Origin: Nanobdellota archaeon
GTDB taxonomy: Archaea > Nanobdellota > Nanobdellia > Woesearchaeales > DSVV01
DNA: 51,953 bases
Direction of reading: 5' to 3'
Assembly: GCA_051819785.1 (NCBI GenBank)
Contig: JBNJGV010000001.1
Span: 1 to 51,953 of the forward strand
Shown here: in pieces, positions 21,108 to 46,604 of the stretch
Position numbering within the stretch: position 1 is the stretch's first letter
Layout: each line of letters opens with the position of its first letter
Translations under genes and position numbers: made by a program
Notes under the pieces: generated by a model
Told to the model about the DNA's origin: nothing
Databases searched by the model: none
Seen by the model: the letters and a program-made list of their open reading frames with translations, nothing else

Positions 21108-21108
21108 T

Positions 21109-22008: not shown

Positions 22009-22114
22009 AATAGAGGTTATTTACTTGTATATTAAAATATTTTTATCTTTTTTTAAATCAATAAAACGAGGTTATAATCAGTTCTCAAATAATGTGTGAG
22101 GGTTTCTGGCGAAC

Positions 22115-22130
22115 AGAAAAATATATAAAT
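22115..22130 (+). promoter_or_regulatory. BRE/TATA-like promoter element for the His-Xaa-Ser-tailed protein gene
   Basis: AGAAAAATATATAAAT ends 21 nt before the ATG at 22152, which implies a leaderless or near-leaderless mRNA. The identical 16-mer occurs at 40343-40358. Confidence 0.45.
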
Positions 22131-22151
22131 CATCTTATCTATGAAAGGTTT

Positions 22152-25304: not shown

Positions 25305-25347
25305 TCCAATAAGAAAAATTTAAATTATATTAAAATTAGGCGGTTTT

Positions 25348-26946: not shown

Positions 26947-26983
26947 TAGGAAGTTTTTTATTTACTAATCTATCACTTATTGT

Positions 26984-29007: not shown

Positions 29008-29052
29008 TTTTTTTCGAAAAGTATTAATATTATATTAAATTTTAGGAGGCGT

Positions 29053-30180: not shown

Positions 30181-30193
30181 TTTTTTCTATATT

Positions 30194-31084
30194 TCAAATT
30201 GTTTCATTACATTTTTCTTTGATTATATTTTTATATCTTAAATAATCTTGTTTTGTTATTGTTTCGCATATTTCAGAATCAGGGGAGGGTAATGACCCAC
30301 ACATACTGGCATTACCTGTTTTGAAAGCATTAAAAAAAACAGAAATCTCTATACATGTGTTATAATTATTAAAATCATCATTGCTTTTGAAGTAATCACA
30401 ATATGTTGTGTTTTTTTCTGATATTGCTTTGCAATATGTTTTAGGAACTGCTTCCATGGAATCGCAGCTTGTTTTTTTTTTAAATAATAATTTACAAAGG
30501 CTCTTTTGTTCTTCTTTTCCAATTTTATTACACAATTTCTCGTCTTTATCTTTAAGCGCTTTTGAAGAGAAATAGACTGCTTTACAATAATCTTTTTCTT
30601 CTTTATTATCAATTTTATTGCAAAAATCAGGGTTGTTTTCAAATAGGGCAATAATAATAGGATCTTTATTCTCTTCATAACACTTCTGGATTTCCTCTTC
30701 AACAAACCTTTTGTTCCTTTCTCTGGTAAGTTCGTCCATTTCTTCATTTGTTAATTTTGTTTCTTTCTCTTCATTTATTTCTTCTTTCTCTTCAGGTGTA
30801 TCTTCTGTTGTGTCTGTGTTATTAGGTTCTTCTGAGTTAATTAGTAATAAAAACATTCCGACAATTAAAAGAACAATCATAATGACTGCAAAAATATATA
30901 CTTTGCCTGTATTATGTATTTTGTATTTTTCTTGCTGAAGGGGTTGATTTTTCTCGGCCTCTTTAAAGGCAAAATTAATTTTTTCTTTGTTATATCCTGC
31001 CTCAACTAGAATTTTTGTAATTTTTTCATCAGAGAAGCCCCTTTGCTTTTCTCTTAAGATATAGTTGGCTAATTGTTCGACCAT
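30194..31084 (-). CDS. Single-pass membrane protein with acidic linker and Cys-rich extracytoplasmic domain (hypothetical)
   Basis: The N-terminal soluble segment is ANYILREKQRGFSDEKITKILVEAGYNKEKI, and the TM helix is VYIFAVIMIVLLIVGMFLLLI. About 16 Cys follow in recurring C-[NK]-K-[IA] / K-x-x-C spacing. Confidence 0.5.
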   Translation of the reverse strand: MVEQLANYILREKQRGFSDEKITKILVEAGYNKEKINFAFKEAEKNQPLQQEKYKIHNTGKVYIFAVIMIVLLIVGMFLLLINSEEPNNTDTTEDTPEEKEEINEEKETKLTNEEMDELTRERNKRFVEEEIQKCYEENKDPIIIALFENNPDFCNKIDNKEEKDYCKAVYFSSKALKDKDEKLCNKIGKEEQKSLCKLLFKKKTSCDSMEAVPKTYCKAISEKNTTYCDYFKSNDDFNNYNTCIEISVFFNAFKTGNASMCGSLPSPDSEICETITKQDYLRYKNIIKEKCNETI

Positions 31085-31123
31085 CTTTTTATAATTGACC
31101 CCTTTCTTTATATTTTTTGTTAT

Positions 31124-31957
31124 TTACTTTACGGTGGTTGTAAAAGGTACGGGTTTTTCTCCTGAATGCTCAATGTAACCTTTCCAGAAACCGCAGCATT
31201 TTGATTTTTTTTCACACCTCCTGCATTCATTTGGGAAATATATGTCTTCTTCAGGCGCAGTTTTTCCTTTGGTATGCTTATGAAGTTCTTTTGGAAGAAA
31301 ACAAAGCGGCAGGTGTAAAATTATAGGCTTTATATTAGTTTTTTTTATAACCTTTGTTGCATTTTTTATTGGTTCTATTGTTTTTTTATAGCTAATAAAC
31401 AAATTGTTAATGTTACTTAATGCTTCACCATCAATTTTCATTTGTATAAATACAATCCTTTTAGCACCCTGAAACTCTTTTTTTATAAATTGAGAAATCT
31501 TTTCAAGTTTACTATAGTTAAGTTTTGTTATTATTATTCGTACTTCTGCGTTATATCCTTTAGATATTAGTTTTTTTAATCCAGTAACGGCTTGTTTGAA
31601 GCTTTTTTTGGTTCTAGTCATAGCATCATGTTCTGGCTCATTATCTGAATAAAGAGCTGTTGCTATTATGAATCTTTCTTTATTAATATTACAAGATTCA
31701 AATTTTTCAAAGAAATTTTTGTTTGAGAAAGCCCTTGCATTGCTGAGTATTAACCCAGATGAACCTGAATTATTAACGTCTTTTATTGCTTTGAAGAAAT
31801 TTTTAGAAAGCGTAGGTTCTCCACCCGAAAGAACAACCATCTTTTCTTTATCTTTTATTTTTGGGTAACTATCTCTTACTTCTTTTTCTCTTAACTTTTT
31901 CTCGGCAACACAGCATAGGCAGTTGTTATTGCATTTTGTTGTAAGTGTAATATGCAT
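31124..31957 (-). CDS. Radical SAM enzyme, HxsC-like (second maturase of a His-Xaa-Ser-type pair)
   Basis: The CX3CX2C motif is at TTKCNNNCLCC, with GGEPTL and NARAF blocks. The C-terminal Cys cluster is CRRCEKKSKCCGFW. It lies immediately downstream of the HxsB-like gene. Confidence 0.5.
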   Translation of the reverse strand: MHITLTTKCNNNCLCCVAEKKLREKEVRDSYPKIKDKEKMVVLSGGEPTLSKNFFKAIKDVNNSGSSGLILSNARAFSNKNFFEKFESCNINKERFIIATALYSDNEPEHDAMTRTKKSFKQAVTGLKKLISKGYNAEVRIIITKLNYSKLEKISQFIKKEFQGAKRIVFIQMKIDGEALSNINNLFISYKKTIEPIKNATKVIKKTNIKPIILHLPLCFLPKELHKHTKGKTAPEEDIYFPNECRRCEKKSKCCGFWKGYIEHSGEKPVPFTTTVK

Positions 31958-31988
31958 CTACATCACTTTGTGCTATGTTCTGTAAAGA

Positions 31989-33392
31989 TTAATCATAAAA
32001 TTTTATCCATTTTTCAAACACTTCTTTAGCAGACTCATCAAAAAGATATTTTTCAAAAATATAATCAAATTGTGCTTTAAATATCTGGCAATATGTTGTT
32101 TGTGGAACGTTTGCAACAATGCTGCCCTGTTCTGCGTAGTTAACTACTGGACAAAGCCCACAATATGGTTTATAGGGGCAATACTCACATATATCTGTGT
32201 CGTTAATTGATGAGGATATCAAAGAAGTACTTTCTTCGCAAGAAATAACTTCTTTAAATTTTTGATTCTTGACTGACCCAATTTTAAAAATCTCTTCTTC
32301 GAACATTCTCCCTTCATCACAGCAAAAAATGTCTCCTTTATGATTATATGCCATCTGACCGATGACTGCGCCACAGGGGCTTCGCATATCAAGAAACCCT
32401 GGGTCAACTTTCTGTAAAATCTTTTGAAGAATAATTGTTGTTCCTCTTTCTCTGAAAAAGATACCTTCTTTATTCTTTTTTATTATGTAATCAAGGCTTT
32501 TTTTCCAAAACTTAATAAACTCCTCAGGTGAATATTCTATCTTATCCTTGTTTTTATTTGCGTAACCCAACTTGTTAAAATATCTTAAATGAATTCCTTT
32601 TAATCCAAGGCCAAGATATTCATCTATGATTTCTTTAGGATATTTAATTGATTCTTTTGTAATTGTAACAAGAGCGTTCATTTGTGCATTTAGTTCTTTT
32701 TTTTTGTATTCTTGCTGGATTTTTTTAATCCAGCCCGTTACCAACTCATGGCTGGATTTTTTATATGGTCTGTTAAAGTCATGGAGTTTTTTTGGCCCAT
32801 CTAAGGAGGTACATATATCAATCTGATTTTTTATGCAGTATTCAAGTATTTCATCAGTCATTTTTGTAAGATTGGTAACCATAACAAAACGAAGATTCTT
32901 GTTATATTTTTTATTCACATTCTTGGCATAGTTTGTAATTTTTTTTATTATTTCGAAATTTAATAAAGGCTCTCCCCCCTGGAATTCTATTGTTACTTGT
33001 TTAGAAGGGCTCTGGAAAATATAATCAACTGTTTGTTCAGCTGTTTTCTCGTCCATATCGTAGCCTTTAGCATCTTTTTGAGTAGAAGAAGTCTGACAAT
33101 ATAGGCATTTTTGATTGCATCTTAATGTTATCGCTACAATGTGAAGAGAAGTGCCCTGCCTGAGAAAATTATATCTTGTATTATAATCGTTTTTTATTTC
33201 TTCTTTGTTGTTTTTTGTTAGAATTATCCCCTTTGATTCGAGTTTTTTGAAAAGGTTTTCTTCTTTAATGTTATCATACTGGAGATGTTCAAACTCTTCT
33301 TTGTTCAAAGCAATCCAATTGCCATGACTTGTTGTTACAAGATATTTGTCATTTATCTTTTTGAATCTGAAAGGATTTATAAGGTATTTCAT
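31989..33392 (-). CDS. Radical SAM/SPASM enzyme, HxsB-like
   Basis: 467 aa. The N-terminal PFRFKKINDKYLVTTSHGNWIALNKEEFEHL resembles the HxsB leader-binding-type N-terminus. The CX3CX2C motif is at LRCNQKCLYC, with FQGGEPLL. The SPASM-like tail is CGA...CCDEGR...CEYCPYKPYCGLCPV. Confidence 0.6.
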   Translation of the reverse strand: MKYLINPFRFKKINDKYLVTTSHGNWIALNKEEFEHLQYDNIKEENLFKKLESKGIILTKNNKEEIKNDYNTRYNFLRQGTSLHIVAITLRCNQKCLYCQTSSTQKDAKGYDMDEKTAEQTVDYIFQSPSKQVTIEFQGGEPLLNFEIIKKITNYAKNVNKKYNKNLRFVMVTNLTKMTDEILEYCIKNQIDICTSLDGPKKLHDFNRPYKKSSHELVTGWIKKIQQEYKKKELNAQMNALVTITKESIKYPKEIIDEYLGLGLKGIHLRYFNKLGYANKNKDKIEYSPEEFIKFWKKSLDYIIKKNKEGIFFRERGTTIILQKILQKVDPGFLDMRSPCGAVIGQMAYNHKGDIFCCDEGRMFEEEIFKIGSVKNQKFKEVISCEESTSLISSSINDTDICEYCPYKPYCGLCPVVNYAEQGSIVANVPQTTYCQIFKAQFDYIFEKYLFDESAKEVFEKWIKFYD

Positions 33393-33598
33393 TTTAGTAT
33401 TTTGGTCATTCCAAGCGTATAATTTTTGAACTCTTTAATTGTTTCTTCGGGGTTTTCTCTTTTGGTTTTCAGTTTAACTTTATGGGTTTCTTTATCTTCT
33501 TTTAAGTCCCCTTCGACAAAATCTTTAAAATCATTAATGGCTGCAAGGATTGCGTTTTTAGAGTATAATTCCTTTTCGAACCTAACTGTTTTCTCCAT
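33389..33598 (-). CDS. HxsD-like small protein, short paralog (69 aa)
   Basis: VRFEKELYSKNAILAAINDF...IKEFKNYTLGM aligns with the neighbouring 139-aa protein (FLDKELYPKDVLHTTAYVF...SKEFKNQLINYAHHM). Its stop overlaps the HxsB-like start (ATGA). Confidence 0.4.
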   Translation of the reverse strand: MEKTVRFEKELYSKNAILAAINDFKDFVEGDLKEDKETHKVKLKTKRENPEETIKEFKNYTLGMTKILK

Positions 33599-34001
33599 TT
33601 TTGTTATATTTTTCCTCCCACGGGACGAGAATTCCTTCAGGGTCTTCTATATCATCTTCCTGCTCAAAGTCGAATTCAAAACTCTCCTCTTCGTTATCGA
33701 TAAAATTGTATGCGAAAATCTCTTGGAGAAGCTTTTTCTTAACTTCTTTGTTTTTTTCATTCATTTGCATATGGTGGGCATAATTTATTAGTTGGTTTTT
33801 GAATTCTTTTGAAAGTTGTTTTGCGTCTTTGTTGTTTTTTGGCTCGAGTTCAACGATAATTTCGTTATCTTTACCCTTTTTCAAAAAGATATAGGCCTTT
33901 TCAAGGAAAACATATGCTGTTGTGTGAAGCACATCTTTTGGGTAGAGCTCTTTGTCAAGAAAGATTTCAACCTTTTCTTTCTCTGAGTTGGTCTTTTCCA
34001 T
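33582..34001 (-). CDS. HxsD-like small protein with acidic C-terminal tail (139 aa)
   Basis: EFKNQLINYAHHMQMNEKNKEVKKKLLQEIF resembles the LLNDYxLRE-type motif region that defines HxsD. I prefer the ATG at 34001 (MEKTNSEKEK) over the TTG at 34022. Confidence 0.4.
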   Translation of the reverse strand: MEKTNSEKEKVEIFLDKELYPKDVLHTTAYVFLEKAYIFLKKGKDNEIIVELEPKNNKDAKQLSKEFKNQLINYAHHMQMNEKNKEVKKKLLQEIFAYNFIDNEEESFEFDFEQEDDIEDPEGILVPWEEKYNKNGENS

Positions 34002-34071
34002 ACTTGCTTTGACTGGGGGCAAGATATTTAAATGTTACTAATCTTTCTAAAATGCAAATCCAGTAAAAAGC

Positions 34072-34090
34072 AAAAATTTATATAAAATTT
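34072..34090. promoter_or_regulatory. AT-rich TATA-like element in the divergent intergenic region (serves 34118 + gene; a second TATA-like atttaaatat at 34025-34034 faces the Hxs-like operon)
   Basis: AAAAATTTATATAAAATTT lies 28-46 nt upstream of the ATG at 34118, which also has a GAGGT SD at 34110-34114. Confidence 0.35.
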
Positions 34091-34117
34091 AATCCCAAAT
34101 TTTTAAAAAGAGGTACA

Positions 34118-37100
34118 ATGGTAAAAGGAAAGTATGTCTTGTTATTTTTAGTATTGGTTTTTTTAGTAGTTTTTGCGACTTCTGTTTTTGCAGGAGGTCT
34201 TGATACTGGATACGCAGATGATGAGACTGTAGCAATTGGTGGCGGTGAAGGTGGTGAAGATGATGAAGAAACAGGCATGAAAGGCAAAACTACAAATCTT
34301 TATATGAAAATTGGTCTGGCTTGTGTTCAAAACGAAAGGGATGCTACAGGCGGAACACCTACTACTGATTCTTCTTCTTTTACTTGGTTTGATGGTTGTG
34401 ATAATGTTGATGATGATAAGCCTGAAGGAAAGATAGGTTATTCTTTTGCCCAAAGATGGGTATATAATTCTGATGGAAGGATGAATTTTAACCCGTATGA
34501 ATGGAGCGAATATAAAAAAGCTGGTTATGAGCCATTTATAGAACTTGATTTGAATTGGAGTGACCCCCGCGAAATTAGATATGAAGGGGATTGTAAGGTG
34601 TATGTTTATTCAGCAAATACCAAGTACCCTGGCCAGTCCGAAGATAGCGATAAAAAATCCAAAGGGGGAAAATTTACCTATTACATTGGGAAAAACCAGG
34701 ATCCTGGGCCCGGGGAAAAGAAAAAGGTTTATGATTTTGATAGAAATATTAATTGGGATGCTAATAAGGCGGATTGTGAGCTTATAGGCGGGGAGTGGCT
34801 TGATGATGAAGTTGACAACCCTGAAACTTATGAGCACGGAACAAGGGGCTCTTATAGGTGCTGTGGAGACGATTGGATTTGGCTTTATAATAGGCCTATA
34901 AATTATGACTCGTCCATTGATAGAACAAACCCAAAAATTATAGAAAAAGTTGACAACCAAGAGCTTTGCCTCTATAATTTGAATAATTATGGAACACCAG
35001 TAGATGTTGAAGGGTTAAGTACAGAAAATCCTAATTATAGATGTCATAAGGCCTATGGCGGAGATGGGAATTCTCATGTTGCTTATGATCCTACTCTTGA
35101 GTTGGATGAGTTAACAAGAGAAGACCCAAATAGGGACGGCGTAATGGCTCGATCAGACGATAATTTTTTCTTTGCAGGTCCTTTAAGCTCGAGCTATGAA
35201 ACAGATATTGGCAAATGGTCTAATAATGACGCAAGCCAAGCAATGTTTTGTTATCATCAATTCAATACTTCTTCAGAAAATGGAGAGGATTTTTCATGGA
35301 TTTCTATTGAAAAAGCAGCCCAAAAAAATCAGCTTATATGTGAGGCATATTTAGGCTATAACTGGACTGGCAGTAATTGTTGTTTTGATGATATGACTTA
35401 TAATGATTCAGAAACCAGTTGTAATTCTAAGGAAATAATTTATGGTCTAAGTCCTGAGTTTTCTAGTCCGGAGTTTGAAGAGGACTTTTTTGAGGAATGC
35501 GATCTTGCAAGCTTCAGGAATCCTGCATGTTTAGAAGGAAGTTCTGTTGAAAACAATACTGCAGTAATCAGTAACGAGAGTAAAAGGGAAGTTTATAATC
35601 TAAATGGTGAATTATTCTTTTGTAACCGCACTCAAGGCAACCAGATTTATGAGGACTTTGAGCATGTCCCAAAATGCGCTCTTAAGGGTCCTGAAGAATA
35701 TCCTTTTATCTGCGCTTATCATAATGATTCTTGGTATGATACTTACAACGCGAATCAGCTTCTAGGGTGGCAGGACAATGGTTCCACGGGAGAACAGATT
35801 GAAAATGGCCTTGGTGTAAGCAGTCTTCCTGAATTTGAAAGTTTTCCTGATAATCTCGATCCTGATGTACAGCAAAAGGAATGTTGTTATTTTGGTTCAT
35901 GTTGGAACGGCACAAAATGCGTTAGCGCTCAAACTAACAATGGCTTTTACCAGGTAGTTGATAACCAGTGGGGCCCTATGATGGGCGGTGTTACTGAGGA
36001 CAAAAAAAACTTTATGTGTTTTAAAGGAGAGTGGCTGGAGCGTTCTCCTGAGTTTAATTGGTATTATGATACAAGCCCCCAAAGGGTTTCTTTATGCCCC
36101 GACACACATTCTTGCGCTTGCAGTGGTGGAGAAACAGCAGGGTATGATTATAGTTGTGGCGAGGAGAATGTAAACGAATTTGGATGCACGATTGAGGAAA
36201 ATTTTTACAAAGAAGACCATTTTTGTGAGGCGACATATGATGATTCAGATGAAGTTAAGGATTCAAGATGGACCTCAAGGACAAAGCTTATTGCCCTGCA
36301 GCTTAAAAGGCTTGCCCAGGGAAGCGACAACTATACTTTGTTTTGTGATGATATTGATTATGCTGTAAATTCACCCGGAAAATTAAAAACAGAGGCAATG
36401 CCTTATGATATTAATAAGGTGTGTGTTATTGAGTTTGATGGTAAAACGGCAATGGGGCTTTCTTTTAATGCAGATAAAGATTCTGAAAATCCTGTTGATA
36501 GTTTCCTTTTTGGTAATGGTGATGTTAATAATGGCTTTGCAAGAGTTGTAGAAAACAATCTCGAAGTGAACGGATGTGATTTTGGTGAGCCAAGCGATTC
36601 ATCAAGTGGAACTTACAAAAAATGTATTGGGGGAAACAACAAAATTTGGGCAAATAGTAAGACAAATTCAATCATATATTCAAAAGAAGGATTAAATATT
36701 GGCGATGGACAATTACCAAAACCTAGCCAAAACGGATTTGATAATTTGGTTCAAGAAATTGTGGATGTTGTTCAAAATAATGATGATTCTGATTTGCCTG
36801 AAGCAGCCTATCTTATCACTACAGCCTCTAATTTTAATAGGCTTTATATGTTAAAAAAAGGAGAAAAGGAGGCATTTGGCTTTATAGAAACGAGAAGGGA
36901 TCCTGCAATAAGTGCAGATGATGACACACCTCTTAGGAATTTTGTTGCAGTTAAATACAGTGGATTTACTAATGTCTGCAATGATATTAGCTTTGTAAGG
37001 GAAAGAGACGATATTCTTCTTTATTGTAATGAACAAGGAGGGGAGAATTTTGTGCTTGGCAGAAGCAGAGATGCTCATCCAGATTATTGGAAAAACCTGG

Positions 37101-37123
37101 CTCCGAAAATAAGGGTTATTTAG
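34118..37123 (+). CDS. Large secreted Cys-rich protein (1001 aa), hypothetical surface/adhesion protein
   Basis: The N-terminal signal is MVKGKYVLLFLVLVFLVVFATSVFA-GG. Many Cys are present, including CC doublets (YRCCGDDW, SNCCFDD, KECCYFGSCWNG). There is no C-terminal anchor. Confidence 0.75.
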   Translation: MVKGKYVLLFLVLVFLVVFATSVFAGGLDTGYADDETVAIGGGEGGEDDEETGMKGKTTNLYMKIGLACVQNERDATGGTPTTDSSSFTWFDGCDNVDDDKPEGKIGYSFAQRWVYNSDGRMNFNPYEWSEYKKAGYEPFIELDLNWSDPREIRYEGDCKVYVYSANTKYPGQSEDSDKKSKGGKFTYYIGKNQDPGPGEKKKVYDFDRNINWDANKADCELIGGEWLDDEVDNPETYEHGTRGSYRCCGDDWIWLYNRPINYDSSIDRTNPKIIEKVDNQELCLYNLNNYGTPVDVEGLSTENPNYRCHKAYGGDGNSHVAYDPTLELDELTREDPNRDGVMARSDDNFFFAGPLSSSYETDIGKWSNNDASQAMFCYHQFNTSSENGEDFSWISIEKAAQKNQLICEAYLGYNWTGSNCCFDDMTYNDSETSCNSKEIIYGLSPEFSSPEFEEDFFEECDLASFRNPACLEGSSVENNTAVISNESKREVYNLNGELFFCNRTQGNQIYEDFEHVPKCALKGPEEYPFICAYHNDSWYDTYNANQLLGWQDNGSTGEQIENGLGVSSLPEFESFPDNLDPDVQQKECCYFGSCWNGTKCVSAQTNNGFYQVVDNQWGPMMGGVTEDKKNFMCFKGEWLERSPEFNWYYDTSPQRVSLCPDTHSCACSGGETAGYDYSCGEENVNEFGCTIEENFYKEDHFCEATYDDSDEVKDSRWTSRTKLIALQLKRLAQGSDNYTLFCDDIDYAVNSPGKLKTEAMPYDINKVCVIEFDGKTAMGLSFNADKDSENPVDSFLFGNGDVNNGFARVVENNLEVNGCDFGEPSDSSSGTYKKCIGGNNKIWANSKTNSIIYSKEGLNIGDGQLPKPSQNGFDNLVQEIVDVVQNNDDSDLPEAAYLITTASNFNRLYMLKKGEKEAFGFIETRRDPAISADDDTPLRNFVAVKYSGFTNVCNDISFVRERDDILLYCNEQGGENFVLGRSRDAHPDYWKNLAPKIRVI

Positions 37124-37146
37124 TCAAGCTCTTTTTACTGATTAAA

Positions 37147-40100
37147 ATGAGATTAAAAAAGGGCCAAGTTATGATTTTTGTAATAATGGGGATGGTGGTT
37201 CTTTTAATTTTTGGTTTTCTTTATTCATTCATAAGTTCACTAAAAAAAGAAGGTCTTGAAAGTCAGCAAGAGGAAAAGGCCCGTGCACTTAAAATAAAAA
37301 ATGAATTTAAAAACTATGTGGGTTCTTGTTTTGATAATGCTGCTAAAGAAGGTTTGCTCTTAGTGGGCAGACAAGGCGGAGTTATATATGATTATCAAGC
37401 CGATAATGCTGCTAGATACAGGGGGCCGCCTAAACGTCCATATGGCGAATATATTCTCCCTTTTCTTGACAAGCAAGAAGATGTTATTTATAACGTTAGT
37501 TATGGAATTACAAAACCCTCCTTTGATGAAACACATCCTTCGCCACCATTATACCCTTACGGGCCCACAAAACTTGTTGAAGACCCAACTAAATATAGCT
37601 CTTCATATGTAAATGTTTTAGGAAACTATCCTCCTCCGGGCCCATTTGTTCCTCTTTGTGATTATAATGGAAGAAATGCTCCTGGCAAGGCTTCAATTGC
37701 GCACTCTTGTGAAACTTATGATAGCAGAAATGCTTTTATACACAACTCTCTTCAGGAATATCTTGAATTTTATGTGGAGAATAAAACTACTGCGTGTGTT
37801 AAACAAAATGCTTTTAGAGCATTAAATTCTACAGTTAATGTTACAAACGTCAACGCTTCTGTGATGTTTTCTAATGAAAAGGTTTATTTTGATTTAGATT
37901 TTCCTGCAAAAATACATACAGAGGGTGAAATAATAAACTCTGATTTTAAAAGGTTCAGCATTGTTGTGGAAAACAGATTGAAGCTTGTACATGAGTTGGC
38001 GTCCCGCTTAATAAAAGAAGATGTAAACAACATTTTTTTTGATATAGTTAAAGACGCTTATACATTAAACAGCTGTAGGGAATGGGGGCGCGATGGTAAG
38101 GTTTGTCTTAAAGAAGGAATGACTATAGAAAAAATCAGGAACCACTGTAAAAAAACAGAGGAGTTAAATTGTCCAAGTGGTGCCGATTATGATGATTTGC
38201 TTGTTATAAGAGATCAAGATTCTTTTTTGTATGGGGAACCCTTTGAGTTCTATTTTGCAATTGAAAACAGGCCGCCGGCTCTTGACTTGATACTTCAACA
38301 GAAAGGTAAAGTGGGCTTTATGTACGACTTTGTCTCCTTTGTTGGCGATGAAATTTTAATAGAACCGAAAGCCTATGACCCTGACGAGAGTTTTCATGGA
38401 AATAACAGGTATATGCAAAAAGGCTATGATTATGGGATGTGGAAGGAAGATTATGATGAAGCATATAATAAGTTTTTTTGCAGTGTGAATCCTGAAGAAT
38501 GTATTAGTGACCCTGGTGGAAAGGCAACGGTGAAACAACCTTCTTACAAACCCAATGCTTGGTCTTCATCCTCAGAATTTGAGAAAACAGAGCGAGCGGC
38601 AAATTATGTAACTCAAAAAAAAGATTGGGGAGCACATGAGGTAAAAGTAAAAGCATGCGATGATGAAGGCCTTTGTGATTATCAGAAGGTTACAATTTTT
38701 GTTGGTAATATATTTGAGAATCAAAGCTTTAATCCTTATTCAGATATTTCAAATAATTTTGCTTCAATTGAAGACCCTTACACAATTGTTTTTCCTAAAG
38801 TTGATTCTGGCTCTGAACCTGCTAAATATGAGATAAAATTAGATTCGCCTTCAGGAGAGAATATTTTGACCCAGAAAGATTCAGAAAGATTCCTTAATAT
38901 ACCATTAGTTGATACAATCGGCGAATTGTCTCCTTCCGAGTTAAGGAACAAGGTTGAAGAAGTTTTTTCTGACAAAGGGGTTTACAATATCGGATTTGAA
39001 TCATTTGATGCTTCCGATAATTTATTGTACTCTTCAGATAACAATGAATTAGAAGTTAAGGAATGCCTGCCGCATGATTCGGAAAATCCTCCGTATCCCT
39101 TTACCAAAGAGAATTACTTACAGGCAGACCATGCTTGTTGCTTGGGGGATGAAAACAATCCTTCAGGAAGCTTTTGGGGAACCTTTGCCGATAGTTCAAC
39201 TGTTTGTTATTCAAAAAAAACAGAGGGGTGTTTTGCTAATTTTTCTGTTCCTGAAGGTGTTGATTATAGTCTTCCTTCCCCTCCGACAGGCATGGATGCG
39301 AAAGATGTTTATGAATTTGACCTTGAAGTAAAATGCTCTGGAAATGAAGGGGTCAGTTGTACGGGTGACACTTCAGGGTCTGTAGAAAAAATACAAGAAT
39401 GCGGCCCTTGTCAGACATGCAAGGCTGGAAGCTCTGAATGCATAAATATGCCTTCGTATGACTTTGTCTGCAATCCTTCTTACGAGTGTTCGCTTGGTGA
39501 ATTTAAGCAATATAATGTAGGTGGGAACTACTCTTGCCAAGCTGCTTGTGATGAGGAAGGGAAATGTAATATTGCAATAAATTGTAGTTGTGATGCGCAG
39601 CATTGTTCTGCGGAATGCGACGATGGCTGGTATCAATGGGTTGGGAATGTTTGTAATTTTAACTGTAGTAACAATTGTGCCTTCCAAGAAAAAGATAGCA
39701 CTATTTGTTCAGCTCCCTCTTCTCCATCTAATTCATATGACTTTGGAAGTGGCTCTATTTTATTGGGTGAAGAAAGTGTGGGTTCCATCTTACAAAACGA
39801 TATAGAATTTGATGATACAAACTATGGATCTGTCTGTGTTCATAACAACAAGTGCCATGTATCCTCGTGTTATGAAGATGGTGTTGGTGAATATGAAGGA
39901 GATGATTGTTATCCTCCTGGTGTTGCCCAAGGCGAGAGGTGTTATACCTCGCCTGGCCCTGAATGCAATCTAGACGCTGAATGTACCAGTTATGATGTTT
40001 TGTCTTTTTATGGAAACAATCCATCAGGGAATACTTGCTATTATAATATTACTTGCCTTGATTCAGGATGGGATTATGAAATAGATACAAGCAAACCTTC

Positions 40101-40329
40101 TGGACACTACAAGGATGGGGGAAAATGCTATTATGGCTCCTTTTGCCATTCCTCTGAGGGTTGGAAAAAGCATTCGGACAGTACTAAACCCTCTCCAAGT
40201 GCAAGTGGAGGTGTGTGCCATTATGGCTCTTCTTGTACGAATTCAGGATGGTCCTATGCTTCTTCAGACAGCACCCAGGTTCCTGACTGCACTAACAAGT
40301 GTACAAATACTGGATGGAAGTGTATATAA
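37147..40329 (+). CDS. Giant pilin-like protein (1060 aa): class III signal peptide fused to a Cys-rich extracellular region; candidate pilus-tip adhesin
   Basis: I prefer the ATG at 37147, which gives MRLKKG-QVMIFVIMGMVVLLIFGFLYSFI (a basic stretch, G, Q at +1, then a roughly 22-aa hydrophobic helix). It has a PKD-like block (HEVKVKACDDEGLCDYQKVTIFV), a CC motif (HACCLGDENN) and C-terminal C-x3-[ST]GW repeats. Confidence 0.7.
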   Translation: MRLKKGQVMIFVIMGMVVLLIFGFLYSFISSLKKEGLESQQEEKARALKIKNEFKNYVGSCFDNAAKEGLLLVGRQGGVIYDYQADNAARYRGPPKRPYGEYILPFLDKQEDVIYNVSYGITKPSFDETHPSPPLYPYGPTKLVEDPTKYSSSYVNVLGNYPPPGPFVPLCDYNGRNAPGKASIAHSCETYDSRNAFIHNSLQEYLEFYVENKTTACVKQNAFRALNSTVNVTNVNASVMFSNEKVYFDLDFPAKIHTEGEIINSDFKRFSIVVENRLKLVHELASRLIKEDVNNIFFDIVKDAYTLNSCREWGRDGKVCLKEGMTIEKIRNHCKKTEELNCPSGADYDDLLVIRDQDSFLYGEPFEFYFAIENRPPALDLILQQKGKVGFMYDFVSFVGDEILIEPKAYDPDESFHGNNRYMQKGYDYGMWKEDYDEAYNKFFCSVNPEECISDPGGKATVKQPSYKPNAWSSSSEFEKTERAANYVTQKKDWGAHEVKVKACDDEGLCDYQKVTIFVGNIFENQSFNPYSDISNNFASIEDPYTIVFPKVDSGSEPAKYEIKLDSPSGENILTQKDSERFLNIPLVDTIGELSPSELRNKVEEVFSDKGVYNIGFESFDASDNLLYSSDNNELEVKECLPHDSENPPYPFTKENYLQADHACCLGDENNPSGSFWGTFADSSTVCYSKKTEGCFANFSVPEGVDYSLPSPPTGMDAKDVYEFDLEVKCSGNEGVSCTGDTSGSVEKIQECGPCQTCKAGSSECINMPSYDFVCNPSYECSLGEFKQYNVGGNYSCQAACDEEGKCNIAINCSCDAQHCSAECDDGWYQWVGNVCNFNCSNNCAFQEKDSTICSAPSSPSNSYDFGSGSILLGEESVGSILQNDIEFDDTNYGSVCVHNNKCHVSSCYEDGVGEYEGDDCYPPGVAQGERCYTSPGPECNLDAECTSYDVLSFYGNNPSGNTCYYNITCLDSGWDYEIDTSKPSGHYKDGGKCYYGSFCHSSEGWKKHSDSTKPSPSASGGVCHYGSSCTNSGWSYASSDSTQVPDCTNKCTNTGWKCI

Positions 40330-40342
40330 CTCTAATTACATT

Positions 40343-40358
40343 AGAAAAATATATAAAT
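40343..40358 (+). promoter_or_regulatory. BRE/TATA-like promoter element upstream of the 2070-aa surface protein gene
   Basis: AGAAAAATATATAAAT lies 34-49 nt upstream of the ATG at 40392 and is identical to 22115-22130. Confidence 0.4.
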
Positions 40359-40391
40359 TAATTATGGTGGTATTATGGTTGTTAGGATAAA

Positions 40392-43300
40392 ATGCTGATT
40401 AAAAAGAGGGTAATATGTAGTTTTTTGTTGTTTTTTGTTGTAGTTTTGTCTATTTCTAGCTATGCTGTAGAAGAAACAGGATATTGCTCAAATCCAATTA
40501 TTCAGTCTGTTTGCTCTGACGATTCTGTTTTAATTACTGAGTGCTGTCCTGAAAATTTTGAAGGATATGGGGGAGCTGGATATCCTAGTGGTGTTGAAGA
40601 TTGCAAAAATAATTATTTTGCTGCAGATTCAATTGATAATATTGAAAACTGTGAAAAGGGCAGTTGCTTTATTGATGGAGAAGCTAATTGTCTTAAGGGC
40701 GCGTATATAGCAACATGTTATTATGAAGGGGGAACGCCTTCAACGACTTCTTGGGATGAAAACCCTCAGTGTATGGAAGGTTGTTGTTGCTATGAGGAAG
40801 ATAGTGTCCAGGAGTCCTTGATAAGTACACAAGGGTATTGTGGTAATAATCCTTCTTCAACATTTTATTCAGAAATTGAAGACTCTGATGCATGTTCTGC
40901 TGAATGCAGTGCTTCTGACCCTGGTGAAGGCGAGCCCGGGGGGGACGATGATGACGACGAAACTCCAAGTGAAACTTCAGAATGCGGTAATATGCCCTAT
41001 TGTGAGATAGAAGGACCACTGGCAGGATCTTGCTGCTGTGATGGAGAGGTTTGCGAAAATGGAGAGTTCTGTTGTGAAGGATCTTGTTTTTCTGTTCCAT
41101 GTGATGAGGTATGTGAAAGATCTGAGCCGTGTGGAACTACAGATGAAAACGGCTGCCCTCTCTTTAAAAAATGCTTTCCTAATGGCTCACTTGCTAAAGA
41201 GTGTACTCCAAGGCCTTCTTGTACAAGTGGTTTTGAAGTCTGTGACACCCCTGAAGATGATGATGGGGATGGCAAAATAAATTGCCAAGAAGCTTTTTGT
41301 GATGGAATGGTTTGCGCTGAAACAGAAGCTGAAAAATCAGAAAATTGTCCGGATAATTCTTATTATGATGCATCAGAAGGTGTTTATAGGTGTTGCTTTG
41401 GTCTTGACCTTAATGATTGTGATGGGGAAGATGGCCCGGACACCTGTGGTGAGTGTAATTGTCTGGAGAACCCACGTTCACCTGTTCTTGACCCAATAGA
41501 GGTGGTTAGAGGGCAGAGAGGAGTGGACATAAGGTGGCACCTTAATTGTGAAGGCGTAAATTATAGGTTAATGAGATGCGAGGGAGAAGAAAATTGTGAT
41601 AATAATGTTTTTAACTTAAGGACGCAAACTTCTAAGTCTACTTTCTATGATGAGGGAATTAAAGAAAATACAAAATATTGTTATTATGTAAAAGCAATTT
41701 ACCCTAATGCAGGGGCAGAAGGCATGGTCATTAAAAAATCAGATGAGAAATGTTTTACTTCTGGAGATAGTGTTTGCATGGAAGTTTCAGGAAGTAGTTT
41801 TTGTCTGGATGAAACAGAGGGCTTTGCAGATAAGCTGGTTTTGAGAGCAACTTGTACACAGGAGAATGTTCTTTCCGTCCAAGAGAATTGTATTCAAAGC
41901 CATGACGAAAATTATGTATGTAGGGGGCCTTTCCCGCCATATGGACAAACGGATTGTGTTTACCAGTCCCCTTGCGAAGAATGCGGGAATCCTTTTGGTG
42001 TTTTTGCTGATTATGATGAGAGTTCTACTTCATTAGGGGAAGGAGGAGAGGGTTTTTGTAAAAATGCACAAACTTGTTATTTTGATTATACTCCTACTTC
42101 TATAGATAATTTTCAAAAGTGCAGCCAAGTTCAGACATGCTATGATTACAAAAGTAAGTCTGCTTGTGAAGGCCAGGCAAGTAAAGCCGAGGAGCAGGGT
42201 GGCCTTGGTTCAAATAATAAATGCCTGCCAAGAGATTGTAAATGGAAAGATTTTGAGGACCTTTCGACAGGAGGTATTTGTGTAGAAAAATCTGACGAAT
42301 TCAGAGATTGTCAAAGCTGCAATGAGGCCGAGTACAACGATATTTTTGGTGCTTGCAATGTTGATATGTGCTCTCTTTTTGGGGATTGTTATTTGAGGAA
42401 CGCCGATTATAAATGTGTTTCTAAAGATAAAATAAGCTGTAAGGATTACCAAACACCTGAGGAGTGCATGGGCGGCTCAGAGCTTCAAGTTGATGTAGAA
42501 TATGAAGAAGGTAGCCGGGTTTCCGGCACAAATAATATTGAGCAACAAAGCGGCGATACTCTGGGTTTTGGTGTGTGTAGATGGGACGATAGCAAAAATC
42601 CCTCATGCTTTAAAGATGCAGATTTTAATTCATTTAAGGATCCTTCTCCTGGCGGCTCGTCTTTTGATATGACTCCTCCTAATACAACAATTCTTTCAGG
42701 AAGATACACTAAGGATCTCAACTTGAGCTTTGAAGTGACAGATTTTAATCCAGATGGTTCAAAAGGCTCTGGTGTTGAGCATTGGGATGTTTTCTTTTGC
42801 AAAACCAAAAAAGGAGAAGCCCCTTGTTATCCAAATAGCTATCCTGAAAAATTAGATAACGGTAAAGGATGGGTTTATCTGGGGGGCGGCACAGGCGTCT
42901 ATGAGGTCTATTATTATTCCATGGATAAAGCGCACAACCTTGAAAAAGTTAAGAAAAAGGAGTTTGAAATTGATATGTCTGCTCCAGAGATTGAAATCTC
43001 TTCTTTTGTTAATGAAGATTTGTCTGAGTTTATAAATAGTGAGATAATGTTTTTTGTTAATACAAGCGAAAGCACCCATTGTTGGGATTATTTTGAACAG
43101 ACAACCGACTCGCAAATAACTGGTGATACTTGGGGGGATAAATGGACCACTAAATATTCTGGCCTTACCGATGGAACTTATGAGTATAAGGTTGTTTGCG
43201 AAGACAGAGCAGGTAACAGAAACCAGGAAGTTGTTTCAGTAAGAGTTAATGCTGATTCATTTATAGATAACACTTTACCTGAAGGAAAAATAGATTATTC

Positions 43301-46300
43301 AGATATTACTCTGATGGCTGAAACATTAAAGGATACCAATTGTAAATGGGGCCCTACTCCTAAGGATTATAATAAATTGCCATATACTTTTTCTAAAATG
43401 AAGGAAGTTGATGGGTATTTTCAACATACTTCTTCTCCTGATGTAGTTAGTGAAAGCAAAACATATTCATTTGATGTTAAATGCATGGATGGGGACAGGG
43501 TTTCTGATGACGAGATACAATTTGTCTATGATAATAAATCACCTGTCACAACGGTTGTTGATTCAAACAATAAACCAATTGATTTTTCTTCTTGGTATTC
43601 TGGCGCAGCAGCAAAAAATAAGTTTTTCCTCGCATGCAATGATTCACCTGAAAACGGGTTTGGCTGCGATGAAACATTTTATTGTATAGATTATAACAAT
43701 GATGTGTGTGTTCCTAATAAAAAAATCTCTCCTGATCAACCCCTTCCTCTTGATTTTTCTAATTCTGATTCTTTCAGGCTTTGCTATAAATCAACAGAAA
43801 ATGTTTTAAATGAAATGGGCGGAAAATCCGAGACCGCAGTTTGTAAAGAAATACAAATAGATACTAATCCTCCTGTTGTAGTGGTTGATTCTCTAAATGC
43901 ATATAAAGATCCTTCGAAACCAAAACAAATTAACACTCCTTCTTATACTTTAGAGGGTGAGGTTATTGACCCGGATGTTGTTAATGATGTTTCAGAAAAT
44001 TTTGTTGATATTGTTGTGGAACATAAAAAATCAGGTAATACTAGTGTGTATGATGATATTCCTGCCAATCCTGATTTTTTAAAAGATATAAGGATAGAAG
44101 AAGAGCTAAATGTTATTACTCTTTTTGCGACAGACAGGTCTGGAGCTAAATCTGGTTCGGTGAAGTATTATTTGTATTATACACCTTACGAAGGTGAGAT
44201 GATCTCTTTGAGCAGGCCTGCTTTTGGTGTTTCTGCTTCGAAAGAATTTGTTTTTGAAGTTGAAACCTATAGTAGCGCAGATTGCAGATATTCTTTGACA
44301 GGGCAAAAAAACGAAGCAATTGATATGGTTTCTTATACAGATAGTGGTAAGTTTTTACATAAAACTAAAAAGGATCTTGATTTGAGCTGGCTGAGTGAGA
44401 ATGTAAAGCATCCAGTGACGGTTTTTTGCAGTTTTGGGGGCAGAGAATTTGAAAAGGAATTTCAGATTTCATGGGACACAACACGTCCAGATATTACAGA
44501 TGTTTATCTTGAGAGAGTAAGAGAAGGAAATCCTCCTGCTTTGATAGAATTCCCTCTTGAATCAAATTTAGTTGTTAAAACAGATGATAAAGCAATATGT
44601 AAATATACAGAAGACCCTTCTTTAGAATACTACAACACTGGACAAAACACCTTTCCTGGTTATTATGATTCAAACTTTTCTAAAGTCAATAAGATTCTAT
44701 TAGATGATTTAGTTGATGGTAATTCTTATACGTTTTATGTACAATGTGAAAACGCAGTAACTGATGAATCAATTACTTTAAGTCCCAGAAAGACTTATAG
44801 GTTCAAAGTTGATACTTCTTTAAGTACTGGGATTGTTTTGGTTTCCCCGAAAGATCCTGTTTCAACTACTTCAATAGAGTTAAAAATAAGAACTACCAAA
44901 TCTGCCTCCTGGTGTGAAGCAGAGTATAATGGTGAAACAAAAAATATGTCTTCCTCAGGCGAGGAAGAGTTCTCTGCAACCTTTGAGAATGTTGCATTGG
45001 GTGAAAATGATTTCGATGTTTCTTGCCTTACTGCTGGCGAAATGGCCGAAGACCACTATAATATTCTTGTTGATACAACACCTCCTTCATCGCCTTCAAT
45101 TAATGATGGAAATGTATCTTCAAATTTGGAATCCCTGAGCGCCAGCTGGCATGCGAGCGACAACGAAACTGACGTGGTGCAATATAAATATGCAATAGGC
45201 AGTATGCCCGGCAGCGCTGATGTTTTAGGTTGGAAAAATACTTCTGATGATAATGCTGTAGCCGGAGGCTTGAATCTTACTAAAATGGAAACTTATTATT
45301 GGATGGTTAAGGCTAAAAATGAAGTAGGCTTGTGGGGTGATTCAAGTGTAAGTGATGGTGTGCTTTTGAATCCTGATTCAGACGATATCTCAAATAAGGG
45401 CTCTTCTGGAGATACAGGGCATTGTTCAAATGGAATACTTGATGAAGACGAAAGTGATGTAGATTGTGGTGGCAAAGATTGTCCGTCTTGCTCTTTTAAT
45501 TCAACTTGTGTATTAGACTCAGATTGTGCAAGCACCAATTGCGTTTCCGGCAAATGCGCAAAGCCAACCTGTGATGATAATATAACTAACCAGGACGAAA
45601 GTGATGTGGACTGTGGCGGGAATTGCAGTCCTTGTTCAAATGGAAAAGGCTGTAGTGTTGATAAAGATTGTGTCTCTGGTTTTTGTGATTATGGGACATG
45701 TTTCGAGCCAAATTGTAATGATGGTGTCAAAAACGGTGGCGAAGAAGGGGTAGATTGTGGTGGCCCCTGTAACAATTCATGTGAATCCATGCAACCTTCT
45801 ACTTGTGAAATAGATGGCAAAAAGGATACTGATTGTGATGGCATTCCTGATGAATGGGAGCTTAAGTATAGCGAGCACCTTGATATGCATAACGCTCAAG
45901 ACGCGAATTTGGATCCAGATGGGGACGGAAGAACCAATTTGGAAGAGTATATGGACGGCACAAACCCAACAAAAGCTGAAAAAAGCCAAGAAAAATCAAG
46001 TTATTGGCTTTTGATTTTGCTGATAATCCTTATTTTGCTTGGCTTTATTGTGGTTTGTGTTTTATCATACAAATATTTTTATTATAAAATTCCGCCTAAA
46101 TACAGGAAATATCTTGATGTGGTTGTGCAGCCAATTGCTAGTAGTATTAACAGAGCATTTGAGAAAATAAAGCCATTTTTGAATCGTGCTAAAACATTTT
46201 GTTCAAATATGCTTGAAAAATCTGGCCTTGCTCCATTTTTAAGAAAATATGGTATTTATTCTGATGCAAAAGGCAAGGCGCCTTATTCTTCTCCTGCTCC

Positions 46301-46604
46301 ATCACCTAAAATTACAAAAAAGTCTGTAGCATTTACTAAGGATGCCCAGAAACAAAAAGGTGCTTCTAAAGTGCCGGCAAAAGGACAAAAAACTAATCCA
46401 AATTTAGGAAATGATTATAAAGATACAGCGTCTACTAAAGAGATGATTCAACAAATCAGAAAAAAGCGCCAGGCAGAAAAACAAAAACAGAGACAAGAGG
46501 TGTTTTCGGAGTTTGACGAGAGTACGAAAGAAAAGCAAAAACCTAGAAAAAGGGGGCTTTTTGATAGAGTAAAAAAGGAATTTGATAAATATTCAAAAAA
46601 ATAA
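40392..46604 (+). CDS. Giant (2070 aa) type I membrane-anchored surface protein: Cys-rich N-terminal region, Fn3/Ig-like modules, tandem Cys-knot-like repeats, Ca-binding TSP3-like motif, TM helix, Lys-rich cytoplasmic tail
   Basis: The signal peptide is MLIKKRVICSFLLFFVVVLSISSYA-VEE. CC/CCC motifs include TECCPENF, EGCCCYEED, GSCCCDGEVCENGEFCCEG and YRCCFGLD. At least six module boundaries have the form D-x-[ST]-x-P (DMTPPNTT, DMSAPEIE, DNKSPVTT, DTNPPVVV, DTTRPDIT, DTTPPSSP). The TSP3-like motif is DTDCDGIPDEWE...DPDGDGRTNLEEYMDGTNP, the TM helix is YWLLILLIILILLGFIVVCVL, and the tail is about 190 aa and basic. Confidence 0.85.
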   Translation: MLIKKRVICSFLLFFVVVLSISSYAVEETGYCSNPIIQSVCSDDSVLITECCPENFEGYGGAGYPSGVEDCKNNYFAADSIDNIENCEKGSCFIDGEANCLKGAYIATCYYEGGTPSTTSWDENPQCMEGCCCYEEDSVQESLISTQGYCGNNPSSTFYSEIEDSDACSAECSASDPGEGEPGGDDDDDETPSETSECGNMPYCEIEGPLAGSCCCDGEVCENGEFCCEGSCFSVPCDEVCERSEPCGTTDENGCPLFKKCFPNGSLAKECTPRPSCTSGFEVCDTPEDDDGDGKINCQEAFCDGMVCAETEAEKSENCPDNSYYDASEGVYRCCFGLDLNDCDGEDGPDTCGECNCLENPRSPVLDPIEVVRGQRGVDIRWHLNCEGVNYRLMRCEGEENCDNNVFNLRTQTSKSTFYDEGIKENTKYCYYVKAIYPNAGAEGMVIKKSDEKCFTSGDSVCMEVSGSSFCLDETEGFADKLVLRATCTQENVLSVQENCIQSHDENYVCRGPFPPYGQTDCVYQSPCEECGNPFGVFADYDESSTSLGEGGEGFCKNAQTCYFDYTPTSIDNFQKCSQVQTCYDYKSKSACEGQASKAEEQGGLGSNNKCLPRDCKWKDFEDLSTGGICVEKSDEFRDCQSCNEAEYNDIFGACNVDMCSLFGDCYLRNADYKCVSKDKISCKDYQTPEECMGGSELQVDVEYEEGSRVSGTNNIEQQSGDTLGFGVCRWDDSKNPSCFKDADFNSFKDPSPGGSSFDMTPPNTTILSGRYTKDLNLSFEVTDFNPDGSKGSGVEHWDVFFCKTKKGEAPCYPNSYPEKLDNGKGWVYLGGGTGVYEVYYYSMDKAHNLEKVKKKEFEIDMSAPEIEISSFVNEDLSEFINSEIMFFVNTSESTHCWDYFEQTTDSQITGDTWGDKWTTKYSGLTDGTYEYKVVCEDRAGNRNQEVVSVRVNADSFIDNTLPEGKIDYSDITLMAETLKDTNCKWGPTPKDYNKLPYTFSKMKEVDGYFQHTSSPDVVSESKTYSFDVKCMDGDRVSDDEIQFVYDNKSPVTTVVDSNNKPIDFSSWYSGAAAKNKFFLACNDSPENGFGCDETFYCIDYNNDVCVPNKKISPDQPLPLDFSNSDSFRLCYKSTENVLNEMGGKSETAVCKEIQIDTNPPVVVVDSLNAYKDPSKPKQINTPSYTLEGEVIDPDVVNDVSENFVDIVVEHKKSGNTSVYDDIPANPDFLKDIRIEEELNVITLFATDRSGAKSGSVKYYLYYTPYEGEMISLSRPAFGVSASKEFVFEVETYSSADCRYSLTGQKNEAIDMVSYTDSGKFLHKTKKDLDLSWLSENVKHPVTVFCSFGGREFEKEFQISWDTTRPDITDVYLERVREGNPPALIEFPLESNLVVKTDDKAICKYTEDPSLEYYNTGQNTFPGYYDSNFSKVNKILLDDLVDGNSYTFYVQCENAVTDESITLSPRKTYRFKVDTSLSTGIVLVSPKDPVSTTSIELKIRTTKSASWCEAEYNGETKNMSSSGEEEFSATFENVALGENDFDVSCLTAGEMAEDHYNILVDTTPPSSPSINDGNVSSNLESLSASWHASDNETDVVQYKYAIGSMPGSADVLGWKNTSDDNAVAGGLNLTKMETYYWMVKAKNEVGLWGDSSVSDGVLLNPDSDDISNKGSSGDTGHCSNGILDEDESDVDCGGKDCPSCSFNSTCVLDSDCASTNCVSGKCAKPTCDDNITNQDESDVDCGGNCSPCSNGKGCSVDKDCVSGFCDYGTCFEPNCNDGVKNGGEEGVDCGGPCNNSCESMQPSTCEIDGKKDTDCDGIPDEWELKYSEHLDMHNAQDANLDPDGDGRTNLEEYMDGTNPTKAEKSQEKSSYWLLILLIILILLGFIVVCVLSYKYFYYKIPPKYRKYLDVVVQPIASSINRAFEKIKPFLNRAKTFCSNMLEKSGLAPFLRKYGIYSDAKGKAPYSSPAPSPKITKKSVAFTKDAQKQKGASKVPAKGQKTNPNLGNDYKDTASTKEMIQQIRKKRQAEKQKQRQEVFSEFDESTKEKQKPRKRGLFDRVKKEFDKYSKK
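45423..45785 (+). repeat. Three tandem Cys-rich repeats at protein level within the giant surface protein
   Basis: The repeats are CSNGILDEDESDVDCGGKDCPSCSFNSTCVLDSDCASTNCVSGKC, CDDNITNQDESDVDCGGNCSPCSNGKGCSVDKDCVSGFCDYGTC and CNDGVKNGGEEGVDCGGPCNNSC (the third is truncated). Confidence 0.85.

Follow-up and report, generated by a model that had tools for sequence, protein, structure and literature searches.

We analysed a 51,953-nucleotide stretch of DNA from a Nanobdellota archaeon (contig JBNJGV010000001.1, hereafter the window), in which three consecutive, tightly packed open reading frames (ORFs) on the plus strand (34118-46604) encode the giant proteins A, B, and C (Table 1). The window encodes PolD DP1 and DP2, Cdc6, MCM, and TBP, which identifies it as archaeal. 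The three ORFs were called at the positions and with the lengths (1001, 1060, and 2070 aa) given in the initial annotation, and its proposed export signals, Sec-like for A, class III for B, and Sec-like with a C-terminal transmembrane (TM) anchor for C, fit the sequence and hydropathy; the signal types were deduced from the sequences, from what the orthologues conserve, and from the helix in the AlphaFold model. The longest ORF of B opens at TTG 37087, upstream of the ATG at 37147, which we took as the start because the orthologues support it. The intergenic gaps are 23 nt between A and B, 62 nt between B and C, and 0-9 nt between C and the next gene.

The pilin-like operon that had been claimed to adjoin the giants was recovered as well, with at least nine downstream ORFs carrying K-[AGS]-x and a hydrophobic helix; it continues past the window end. 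The cysteine content of the three proteins is unusually high, as had been stated, at 3.5% (A), 4.9% (B), and 5.65% (C), compared with ~0.7-2.5% in most remaining ORFs of the window, where only the radical-SAM enzymes reach 3-4%.

Table 1. Coordinates of the three giant genes, their regions, and other features of the window
Feature	Coordinates	Strand	Description or basis
Protein A	34118..37123	+	1001-aa ORF, 35 Cys
A-CTD (C-terminal domain), A residues ~560-1001	35795..37120	+	Profile search, Cys conservation
Protein B	37147..40329	+	1060 aa from ATG, 52 Cys
B residues 1-75, putative class III-type signal and long N-terminal alpha-helix	37147..37371	+	Orthologue consensus, AlphaFold
B residues ~76-520, conserved core	37372..38706	+	Distant homologues, 36-sequence alignment
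B residues ~640-1060, Cys-rich beta-strand distal half	39064..40326	+	Cys counts, AlphaFold
Protein C	40392..46604	+	2070-aa ORF, 117 Cys
C residues ~26-745, Cys-rich N-terminal region	40467..42626	+	Cys density, invariant Cys columns
C residues ~758-1668, beta-sandwich (Ig-like/FN3-like) array	42663..45395	+	Big_13, hhalign, Cys pairs
C residues ~1677-1795, three tandem ~45-aa modules CxxGxxxxxExxVDCGGxCxxC	45420..45776	+	Sequence reading
C residues 1867-1898, TM anchor, and 1899-2070, Lys-rich cytoplasmic tail	45990..46601	+	Hydropathy, alignment consensus
Nine consecutive small pilin-like ORFs, 51-365 aa	46605..51888	+	Translations: K-[AGS]-x and hydrophobic helix
HxsB	31989-33392	-	TIGR03978, 490 bits (cut-off 370)
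HxsD	33582-34022	-	53 bits (cut-off 50)
HxsC-like	31124-31957	-	Below cut-off
Candidate precursor HxsA	22092-22475	+	C-terminal end QHQHHYNHTSHSSHGSY (HTSHSSHGSY), conserved in L001
Two fusions of radical-SAM and C-terminal domain of branched-chain polyamine synthase BpsA	22462-24234, 25348-26946
Spermidine-synthase-like gene	26984-28009
Two further SPASM enzymes	24231-25304, 27979-29007

Conservation and synteny of the trio

Relatives of the three genes were found in Candidatus Woesearchaeota metagenome-assembled genomes, including the 1.84-Mb chromosome OY970338.1, and at least seven further genomes or metagenome contigs of Woesearchaeota keep the order of the trio. A, B, and C recur together with small pilin-like genes in the related loci L001/L012, L003/L010 (OY970338.1), L005, L007, L008, L011, and L013 and in a JGI contig, and the order holds with A identity down to 29-31%. 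The initial annotation had considered that the proteins might be absent or pseudogenised in close relatives; the trio is intact in them. The B-C pair is the deepest core, being kept in L014, L015, and L016 with B at 26-28% identity. The large upstream gene of L014, which the A profile missed, has weak BLASTP similarity to A (E = 4e-6).

Compared with the closest relative, the trio shows 58-62% identity, while the flanking genes are mostly at 46-80% and two of them at 31-33%. We see no sign of diversifying evolution, because the trio is no more diverged than most of the flanking genes. The G+C content over the three giant genes (34001-46000) is 0.36-0.40, versus 0.29-0.33 in 18001-34000; since the synteny is kept in relatives, recent transfer is a less likely cause of the higher value than the amino-acid composition (Gly, Cys, Asp, Glu). 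Four contigs carrying the trio (L006, L008, L009, and L011) are titled 'uncultured Methanosarcinales archaeon', and these labels look unreliable because the gene content matches Woesearchaeota loci.

The downstream pilin-like genes have orthologues in L012, L013, and L008, arranged as in the window, and L012 has at least 17 pilin-like genes after C. The last visible gene of this train in L012 (25193-26162) encodes a 766-aa protein of NlpC/P60, a cell-wall peptidase family, and runs off the locus. Its start, MKNKKGQHIFSVLLVF, is a class III-type N-terminus; a wall hydrolase with a pilin-like tag in a DPANN archaeon would merit attention.

Sequence families and domain anatomy of A, B, and C

Recurring CC and CCC motifs followed by acidic residues had been read in the initial annotation as the mark of a common disulfide-rich domain family. 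All of the motif strings quoted there are present in the A, B, and C translations, and the common family was not confirmed. The CC doublets number 3 in A, 1 in B, and 7 in C, against shuffle expectations of 1.2, 2.5, and 6.6 (5000 residue shuffles per protein; probability of at least the observed number 0.12, 0.92, and 0.50); their frequency is a by-product of Cys composition. Acidic residues after CC are equally unremarkable as a family mark, because Asp and Glu make up 15-17% of all three proteins. BLASTP among A, B, and C gave no significant similarity (best E = 0.17), hhalign comparison of the three family profiles gave probabilities of 11%, 1.7%, and 4.5%, and a deeper 44-sequence A-CTD profile gave 0.2% against B and 0.1% against C. 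Since neither BLASTP nor the profile-profile comparisons showed homology, A, B, and C are three unrelated Cys-rich families, and a single family, for which the CC enrichment is also lacking, is not supported. The tempting notion of CC motifs as a link between the three proteins is thereby corrected.

The cysteines themselves are strongly conserved. It had been considered that the segments might map to known domains with unconserved cysteines; instead, 30 of the 35 cysteines of A are invariant across its homologues, all three CC doublets included, 30 cysteines of B are invariant in its 20 closest homologues, and ~85 are invariant in C. Of the profile and structure searches of the kind proposed with the initial annotation, Foldseek gave a tandem immunoglobulin (Ig)-type architecture for B and nothing for A at E<0.02, and the family profiles gave only a marginal Big_13 match for C. 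NCBIfam gave nothing above cut-off for the three proteins, Pfam, run on A, B, and C in full and on C cut into ten 200-aa segments, gave the marginal Big_13 match only, and PDB profile searches with the A, B, and C family alignments gave no match at E<0.08. Further Cys-rich ORFs lie a few kb upstream of the trio in L003 (303-1565; 420 aa, 14% Cys) and L013 (2439-5831; 1130 aa, 9.8% Cys), which suggests that exported proteins rich in cysteine are common in these genomes as a whole.

Protein A has a Sec-type n-h-c signal (MVKGKYVLLFLVLVFLVVFATSVFA, followed by GG), and hydropathy shows no other TM segment. The word search found 13 homologues with 28-62% identity, and A has no Pfam, NCBIfam, or PDB sequence match. 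The A profile, searched against 1.84 billion representatives, matched 828 clusters at E<=1e-3 and 214 at E<=1e-30. Among the matches listed, most align only to profile positions ~450/570-973, corresponding to the last ~420 residues, and this A-CTD sits C-terminally in proteins of 600-2800 aa, mostly with a Sec-type N-terminus. Few of the clusters bear names, and the named ones are from Nanoarchaeota or Woesearchaeota. The conserved motifs of the A-CTD are ECCxxxxCWNG, DHYCExGxWTSRTK, YTLFCD, NNxCVL, and WxDLTxKLR, and 15 cysteines, the ECC doublet C589-C590 among them, are at least 95% conserved in 44 diverse members. Pfam left the domain uncovered in five distant members, two of which have PKD and GLUG matches elsewhere. 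Judged from these alignments, the A-CTD is an undescribed, predicted extracellular domain, so far named only from Nanoarchaeota/Woesearchaeota; with ~420 aa, 15 conserved cysteines, and more than 800 clusters, it merits a family definition and a structure. The AlphaFold model of A is poor over residues 1-470 and moderate over 470-990 (predicted local distance difference test, pLDDT, mostly 60-90 as per-10-residue values), and Foldseek of this model against the PDB gave no match at E<0.02; we therefore assign no fold to A.

Protein B starts with MRLKKG followed by QVMIFVIMGMVVLLIFGF, that is, a basic N-terminus, a glycine at position -1, and a hydrophobic stretch of ~20 residues, which is class III-type as judged by eye against what we take to be the FlaFind-type pattern. 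The orthologues keep K-[GSA]-Q-[VI]-T-x-F-[IV]-[IV], with the consensus K-x-Q-x-T-x-F-I-I-x-G-I-V. The 35 homologues found, aligned with B as 36 sequences, define a conserved core with the invariant-column motifs QGGVIYDYQA, YPYG, ENRPPALD, and DPDED. The distal half is the Cys-rich part: 38 of the 52 cysteines lie within residues 601-1060, 22 of the 30 invariant ones fall in the distal half, and this half closes with four C-x-[YK]-x(3)-C-x(3,4)-GW mini-repeats. In distant homologues, which are 650-1365 aa long, the alignment to B covers only its residues 1 to ~390-550, and the homologues in L008 (526 aa) and L016 (720 aa) are without the distal half. The Cys-rich distal half is thus an add-on, because all of these proteins share the N-terminal part only.

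The AlphaFold model of B, built with the 36 sequences (mean pLDDT 82.7), shows residues 6-75 as one long helix (block pLDDT 56-96), and from there to the C-terminus the domains are all-beta. Foldseek against the PDB gave 149 matches at E<=1e-3, every one a tandem Ig/fibronectin type III (FN3)-type protein, including three fragments of Aureispira GhpA (E 3e-8 to 7e-7), contactin, complement MG arrays, the Bacillus surface-layer (S-layer) protein Sap, the Bacteroides SGBP-B, and an ice-binding adhesin. The TM-scores of the B matches are low (0.07-0.11 on the query), and therefore the matches give the domain class, a string of Ig-like domains, and not the family. According to this model, B has the predicted anatomy of a giant modular pilin fused to a long Ig-like stalk.

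Protein C has a Sec-type signal (residues 1-29) and a single C-terminal TM span (1867-1898) in hydropathy, and both are conserved in the orthologues, eight of which are full-length (35-63% identity). The N-terminal region of ~720 aa contains ~70 cysteines and holds the CC and CCC motifs; it has no Pfam match on 200-aa segments, and its residues ~407-745 belong to a core still detectable in distant C-like proteins. The array that follows consists of about nine modules of ~100 aa, most with a conserved Cys pair (for instance, C897/C936, C984/C1031, C1298/C1346, C1403/C1452, and C1508/C1545), and five of the modules are mutually related (hhalign probability 81-96%). Big_13 (PF19077, cut-off 27 bits) scored 22.1 bits on the whole protein and 27.5 on the isolated segment 740-960, with the match at ~909-952.

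The tandem CGGxCxxC modules of C are followed by TSP3-like DxDxDG calcium-type motifs to about residue 1865. Partial matches over 4-9% of C land on MopE-related and TSP3-repeat proteins (TSP3_bac is weak); the MopE-type family PF11617 is annotated on some of these partial matches, and C itself is unmatched by it, whole or as segment 1670-1890 (E<=1). The match of C to a family of the Amuc_1099 pilus-like system was sub-threshold (25.3 bits, cut-off 50). The tail carries a conserved IPPxxRxYxD motif, and W1872, Y1893, and K2032 are invariant. The distant C-like partners of the B homologues are very large, 6274 aa in L015 (14276-24098), 2985 aa in L014 (13370-22327), and 2610 aa in L016 (12491-20323), and retain only the region matching C residues ~407-1200.

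Comparison with known systems and possible roles

In archaeal type IV pilus (T4P) loci of the Thermoproteales (subclades 4B/4E/4G), one large S-layer-like protein is anchored at its C-terminus, another large protein has a signal peptide and is described as an 'adhesin or minor pilin', and small minor pilins accompany them; many cysteines are conserved and expected in disulfides (Makarova et al. 2016, PMC4858521). The A-B-C trio shares this locus logic, although it has no Pfam, NCBIfam, or PDB relative and was compared with the arCOG families of that study by description only. The differences are that three large proteins are found here and two there, that the pilin-like one is 1060 aa here, that the trio has a third, secreted partner and no ATPase or TadC platform in cis, and that the lineage is Woesearchaeota and not hyperthermophilic Thermoproteota. 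Large anchored and adhesin-like proteins in archaeal pilus loci are already known, and the trio is best read as a variant of these; our literature searches found no description of an A-B-C triad.

The Ig-rich adhesin-like proteins of the archaeal type IV filament (TFF) subsystem 4G (arCOG05616) were recently described as resembling Aureispira GhpA (bioRxiv 10.64898/2026.04.22.720090), and the best structural matches of B, to GhpA fragments (PDB 9fls, 9flv, 9flu), parallel that comparison. The likeness is limited to the beta-sandwich chain (TM-score 0.09 on the query and 0.18-0.21 on the target, root-mean-square deviation >33 A); Foldseek showed no global structural similarity between B and GhpA, and no hook-forming region was identified in B. 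Unlike B, GhpA is not known to have a pilin-type N-terminus. Bacterial modular type IV pilins, such as PilB and PilC of Streptococcus sanguinis and the tip minor pilins TcpB and CofB, consist of a pilin module with extra domains that are displayed. B resembles them in the class III signal and alpha-1 helix fused to extra domains, and differs in being much larger, archaeal, and Cys-rich and in having no recognisable von Willebrand factor A (vWA) or lectin domain; its incorporation into a filament is putative. Giant surface proteins of episymbionts among the DPANN archaea and the Candidate Phyla Radiation (CPR), e.g., SPEARE of Nanohaloarchaeum antarcticus, have been proposed to serve host contact. 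By this description, the trio and the SPEARE-type giants are alike as very large extracellular proteins in ultra-small archaea, while the trio is a constant set of three genes linked to pilin-like genes and lacks the enzymatic domains reported for those giants.

The trio is probably a conserved cell-surface module with an adhesive character. For the more specific reading, that it is a surface or adhesion module linked to a type-IV-filament system of Woesearchaeota, we estimate a probability of about one half. According to this reading, A, B, and C would be the leading, co-transcribed genes of a lineage-specific module within the pilin-like cluster. A prepilin peptidase would cut the class III signal of B, whose hydrophobic helix would then enter the membrane or a pilus-like fibre built from the small downstream pilin-like proteins, so that B may be displayed on the fibre or at its base and may present a beta-sandwich chain of ~1000 residues with the distal half locked by disulfides. 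C would be exported by the Sec route and anchored by its C-terminal TM helix, the Ig-like stalk carrying the 720-residue Cys-rich head and the basic conserved tail facing the cytoplasm. A would be Sec-secreted and probably held to B, C, or the envelope via its Cys-rich C-terminal domain. The conserved cysteines would form structural disulfides, and the likeliest job of the assembly would be adhesion to another cell (host) or to a surface. A pilin with an Ig-like stalk (B) and an anchored Ig-like array (C) are both typical of surface and adhesive proteins. Further points in favour of this reading are the short intergenic gaps, the recurring gene order, the deep B-C pairing, the conserved class III-type start of B, the cysteine conservation, and the precedents in archaeal T4P and TFF loci (PMC4858521; bioRxiv 10.64898/2026.04.22.720090).

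Several results weigh against this reading. The searches with the trio turned up no lectin, vWA, PilY1-like, or other binding domain, a usable structure model is confined to B and the C-terminal half of A, and the TM-scores of B are low, as described above. The small downstream proteins have no Pfam match and match no known pilin family, and their class III calls rest on the sequence pattern only. Neither in the 52-kb window nor within 10 kb downstream in L012 did we find an assembly ATPase, a platform protein, or a prepilin peptidase. In favour of the reading, the cluster of L014 has a gene with a weak match to Peptidase_A24 (prepilin peptidase) 2 kb upstream. Disulfide formation in a probably anaerobic archaeon is unexplained. 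Hypervariability, sought as a signature of host interaction, was absent from the trio in the comparison with the closest relative.

Host attachment by the trio is a hypothesis. The data shift its likelihood neither way, except that hypervariability is missing and that one carrier has a fairly large genome, a 1.84-Mb chromosome, which we judge large for an obligate episymbiont. To our knowledge, no Woesearchaeota have been cultivated, and their ways of interacting with other cells are unknown. The gene set defined here comprises the predicted modular pilin B, the Ig-rich giant C with its anchor, the secreted A, and the train of pilin-like genes, and it is traceable in metatranscriptomes, proteomes, and cryo-electron tomography of enrichments.

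An envelope function is unlikely. In this case, C would be an S-layer or stalk protein anchored like SlaB or other archaeal S-layer proteins with a C-terminal anchor, A and B would be structural partners in the envelope, and the module would be housekeeping and non-adhesive, with the pilin-like genes aiding envelope or filament assembly. The Sec signal, the very large Ig-rich ectodomain, the C-terminal TM helix, and the short tail of C agree with this, as do the conservation of the module at the rate of its neighbours, without hypervariability, and the presence of Sap among the B Foldseek matches. S-layer proteins, however, are usually Cys-poor and encoded outside pilin operons, the C-like proteins range from 2000 to >6000 aa among relatives, which is unusual for a lattice protein, and the strict pairing with a giant pilin points to an apparatus of a specialised kind. 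In favour of the envelope function, the comparable large proteins of T4P loci that have a C-terminal anchor have been read as S-layer-like (PMC4858521).

Less probable is a bindosome-like apparatus, in which the class III signal would serve only to tether large extracellular proteins to a short pseudopilus at the membrane, and the module would capture or process polymers or nutrients and not attach to cells. Class III signals on non-pilin proteins are established, for instance on Sulfolobus sugar-binding proteins, and the locus has many pilin-like genes, none of them obvious as the major pilin. The L012 operon closes with the NlpC/P60 hydrolase, which has an N-terminus of the same type, and the glycan-binding surface protein SGBP-B is among the B Foldseek matches; the bindosome is also discussed in PMC4858521. 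Against such a function, the searches with A, B, and C yielded no substrate-binding, carbohydrate-binding, or catalytic domain, and no ABC transporter is adjacent to the trio.

We also consider it improbable that A, B, and C together are a dedicated Woesearchaeota-specific host-capture organelle. In such an organelle, a pilus-like fibre tipped by B would dock with the secreted A, the membrane-anchored C would couple the apparatus to the cell, and class III-tagged enzymes, such as the L012 NlpC/P60 protein, would help to breach the wall of the partner.

It is highly improbable that the cysteines are metal or redox ligands (MopE-like copper sites) or thioether targets of radical SAM/SPASM (Hxs) maturases: the C-terminal repeats of C give partial matches to MopE-related proteins, five genomes, the distant L014 among them, have an HxsB orthologue next to the trio, and SPASM maturases act on Cys-rich peptides according to NCBIfam family names, but C scores nothing on the MopE Pfam model, the Hxs system has a candidate substrate of its own (Table 1), Hxs genes are not beside the trio in L013, L015, and L016, and one Cys pair per Ig-like module is a spacing typical of disulfides.

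Other features of the window

A His-Xaa-Ser (Hxs) radical-SAM system is located upstream of the trio and divergently transcribed (31124-34022, minus strand). An HxsB orthologue adjoins the trio in five different Woesearchaeota genomes. The Hxs cluster was considered as a modifier of the giants and set aside, given the separate HxS-repeat candidate substrate and the several loci without Hxs. We treat it as a neighbour and not as a part of the module, because it has its own candidate HxsA and several trio loci do not contain it. The preceding stretch (22462-29007) is dense in radical-SAM genes (Table 1).

Immediately in front of cdc6 (1827-3038) and the PolD genes is a 1.8-kb non-coding stretch (1-1826; 22% G+C). 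Just before the start of cdc6, it contains an inverted pair of elements 47 bp apart, TTCCACAGGAAAC at 1751-1763 (plus strand) and TTCCAGATGAAAC at 1810-1822 (minus strand), which resemble the mini-ORB (origin recognition box) when matched to what we take to be the ORB consensus. Judging from its sequence features, this stretch is probably a replication origin.

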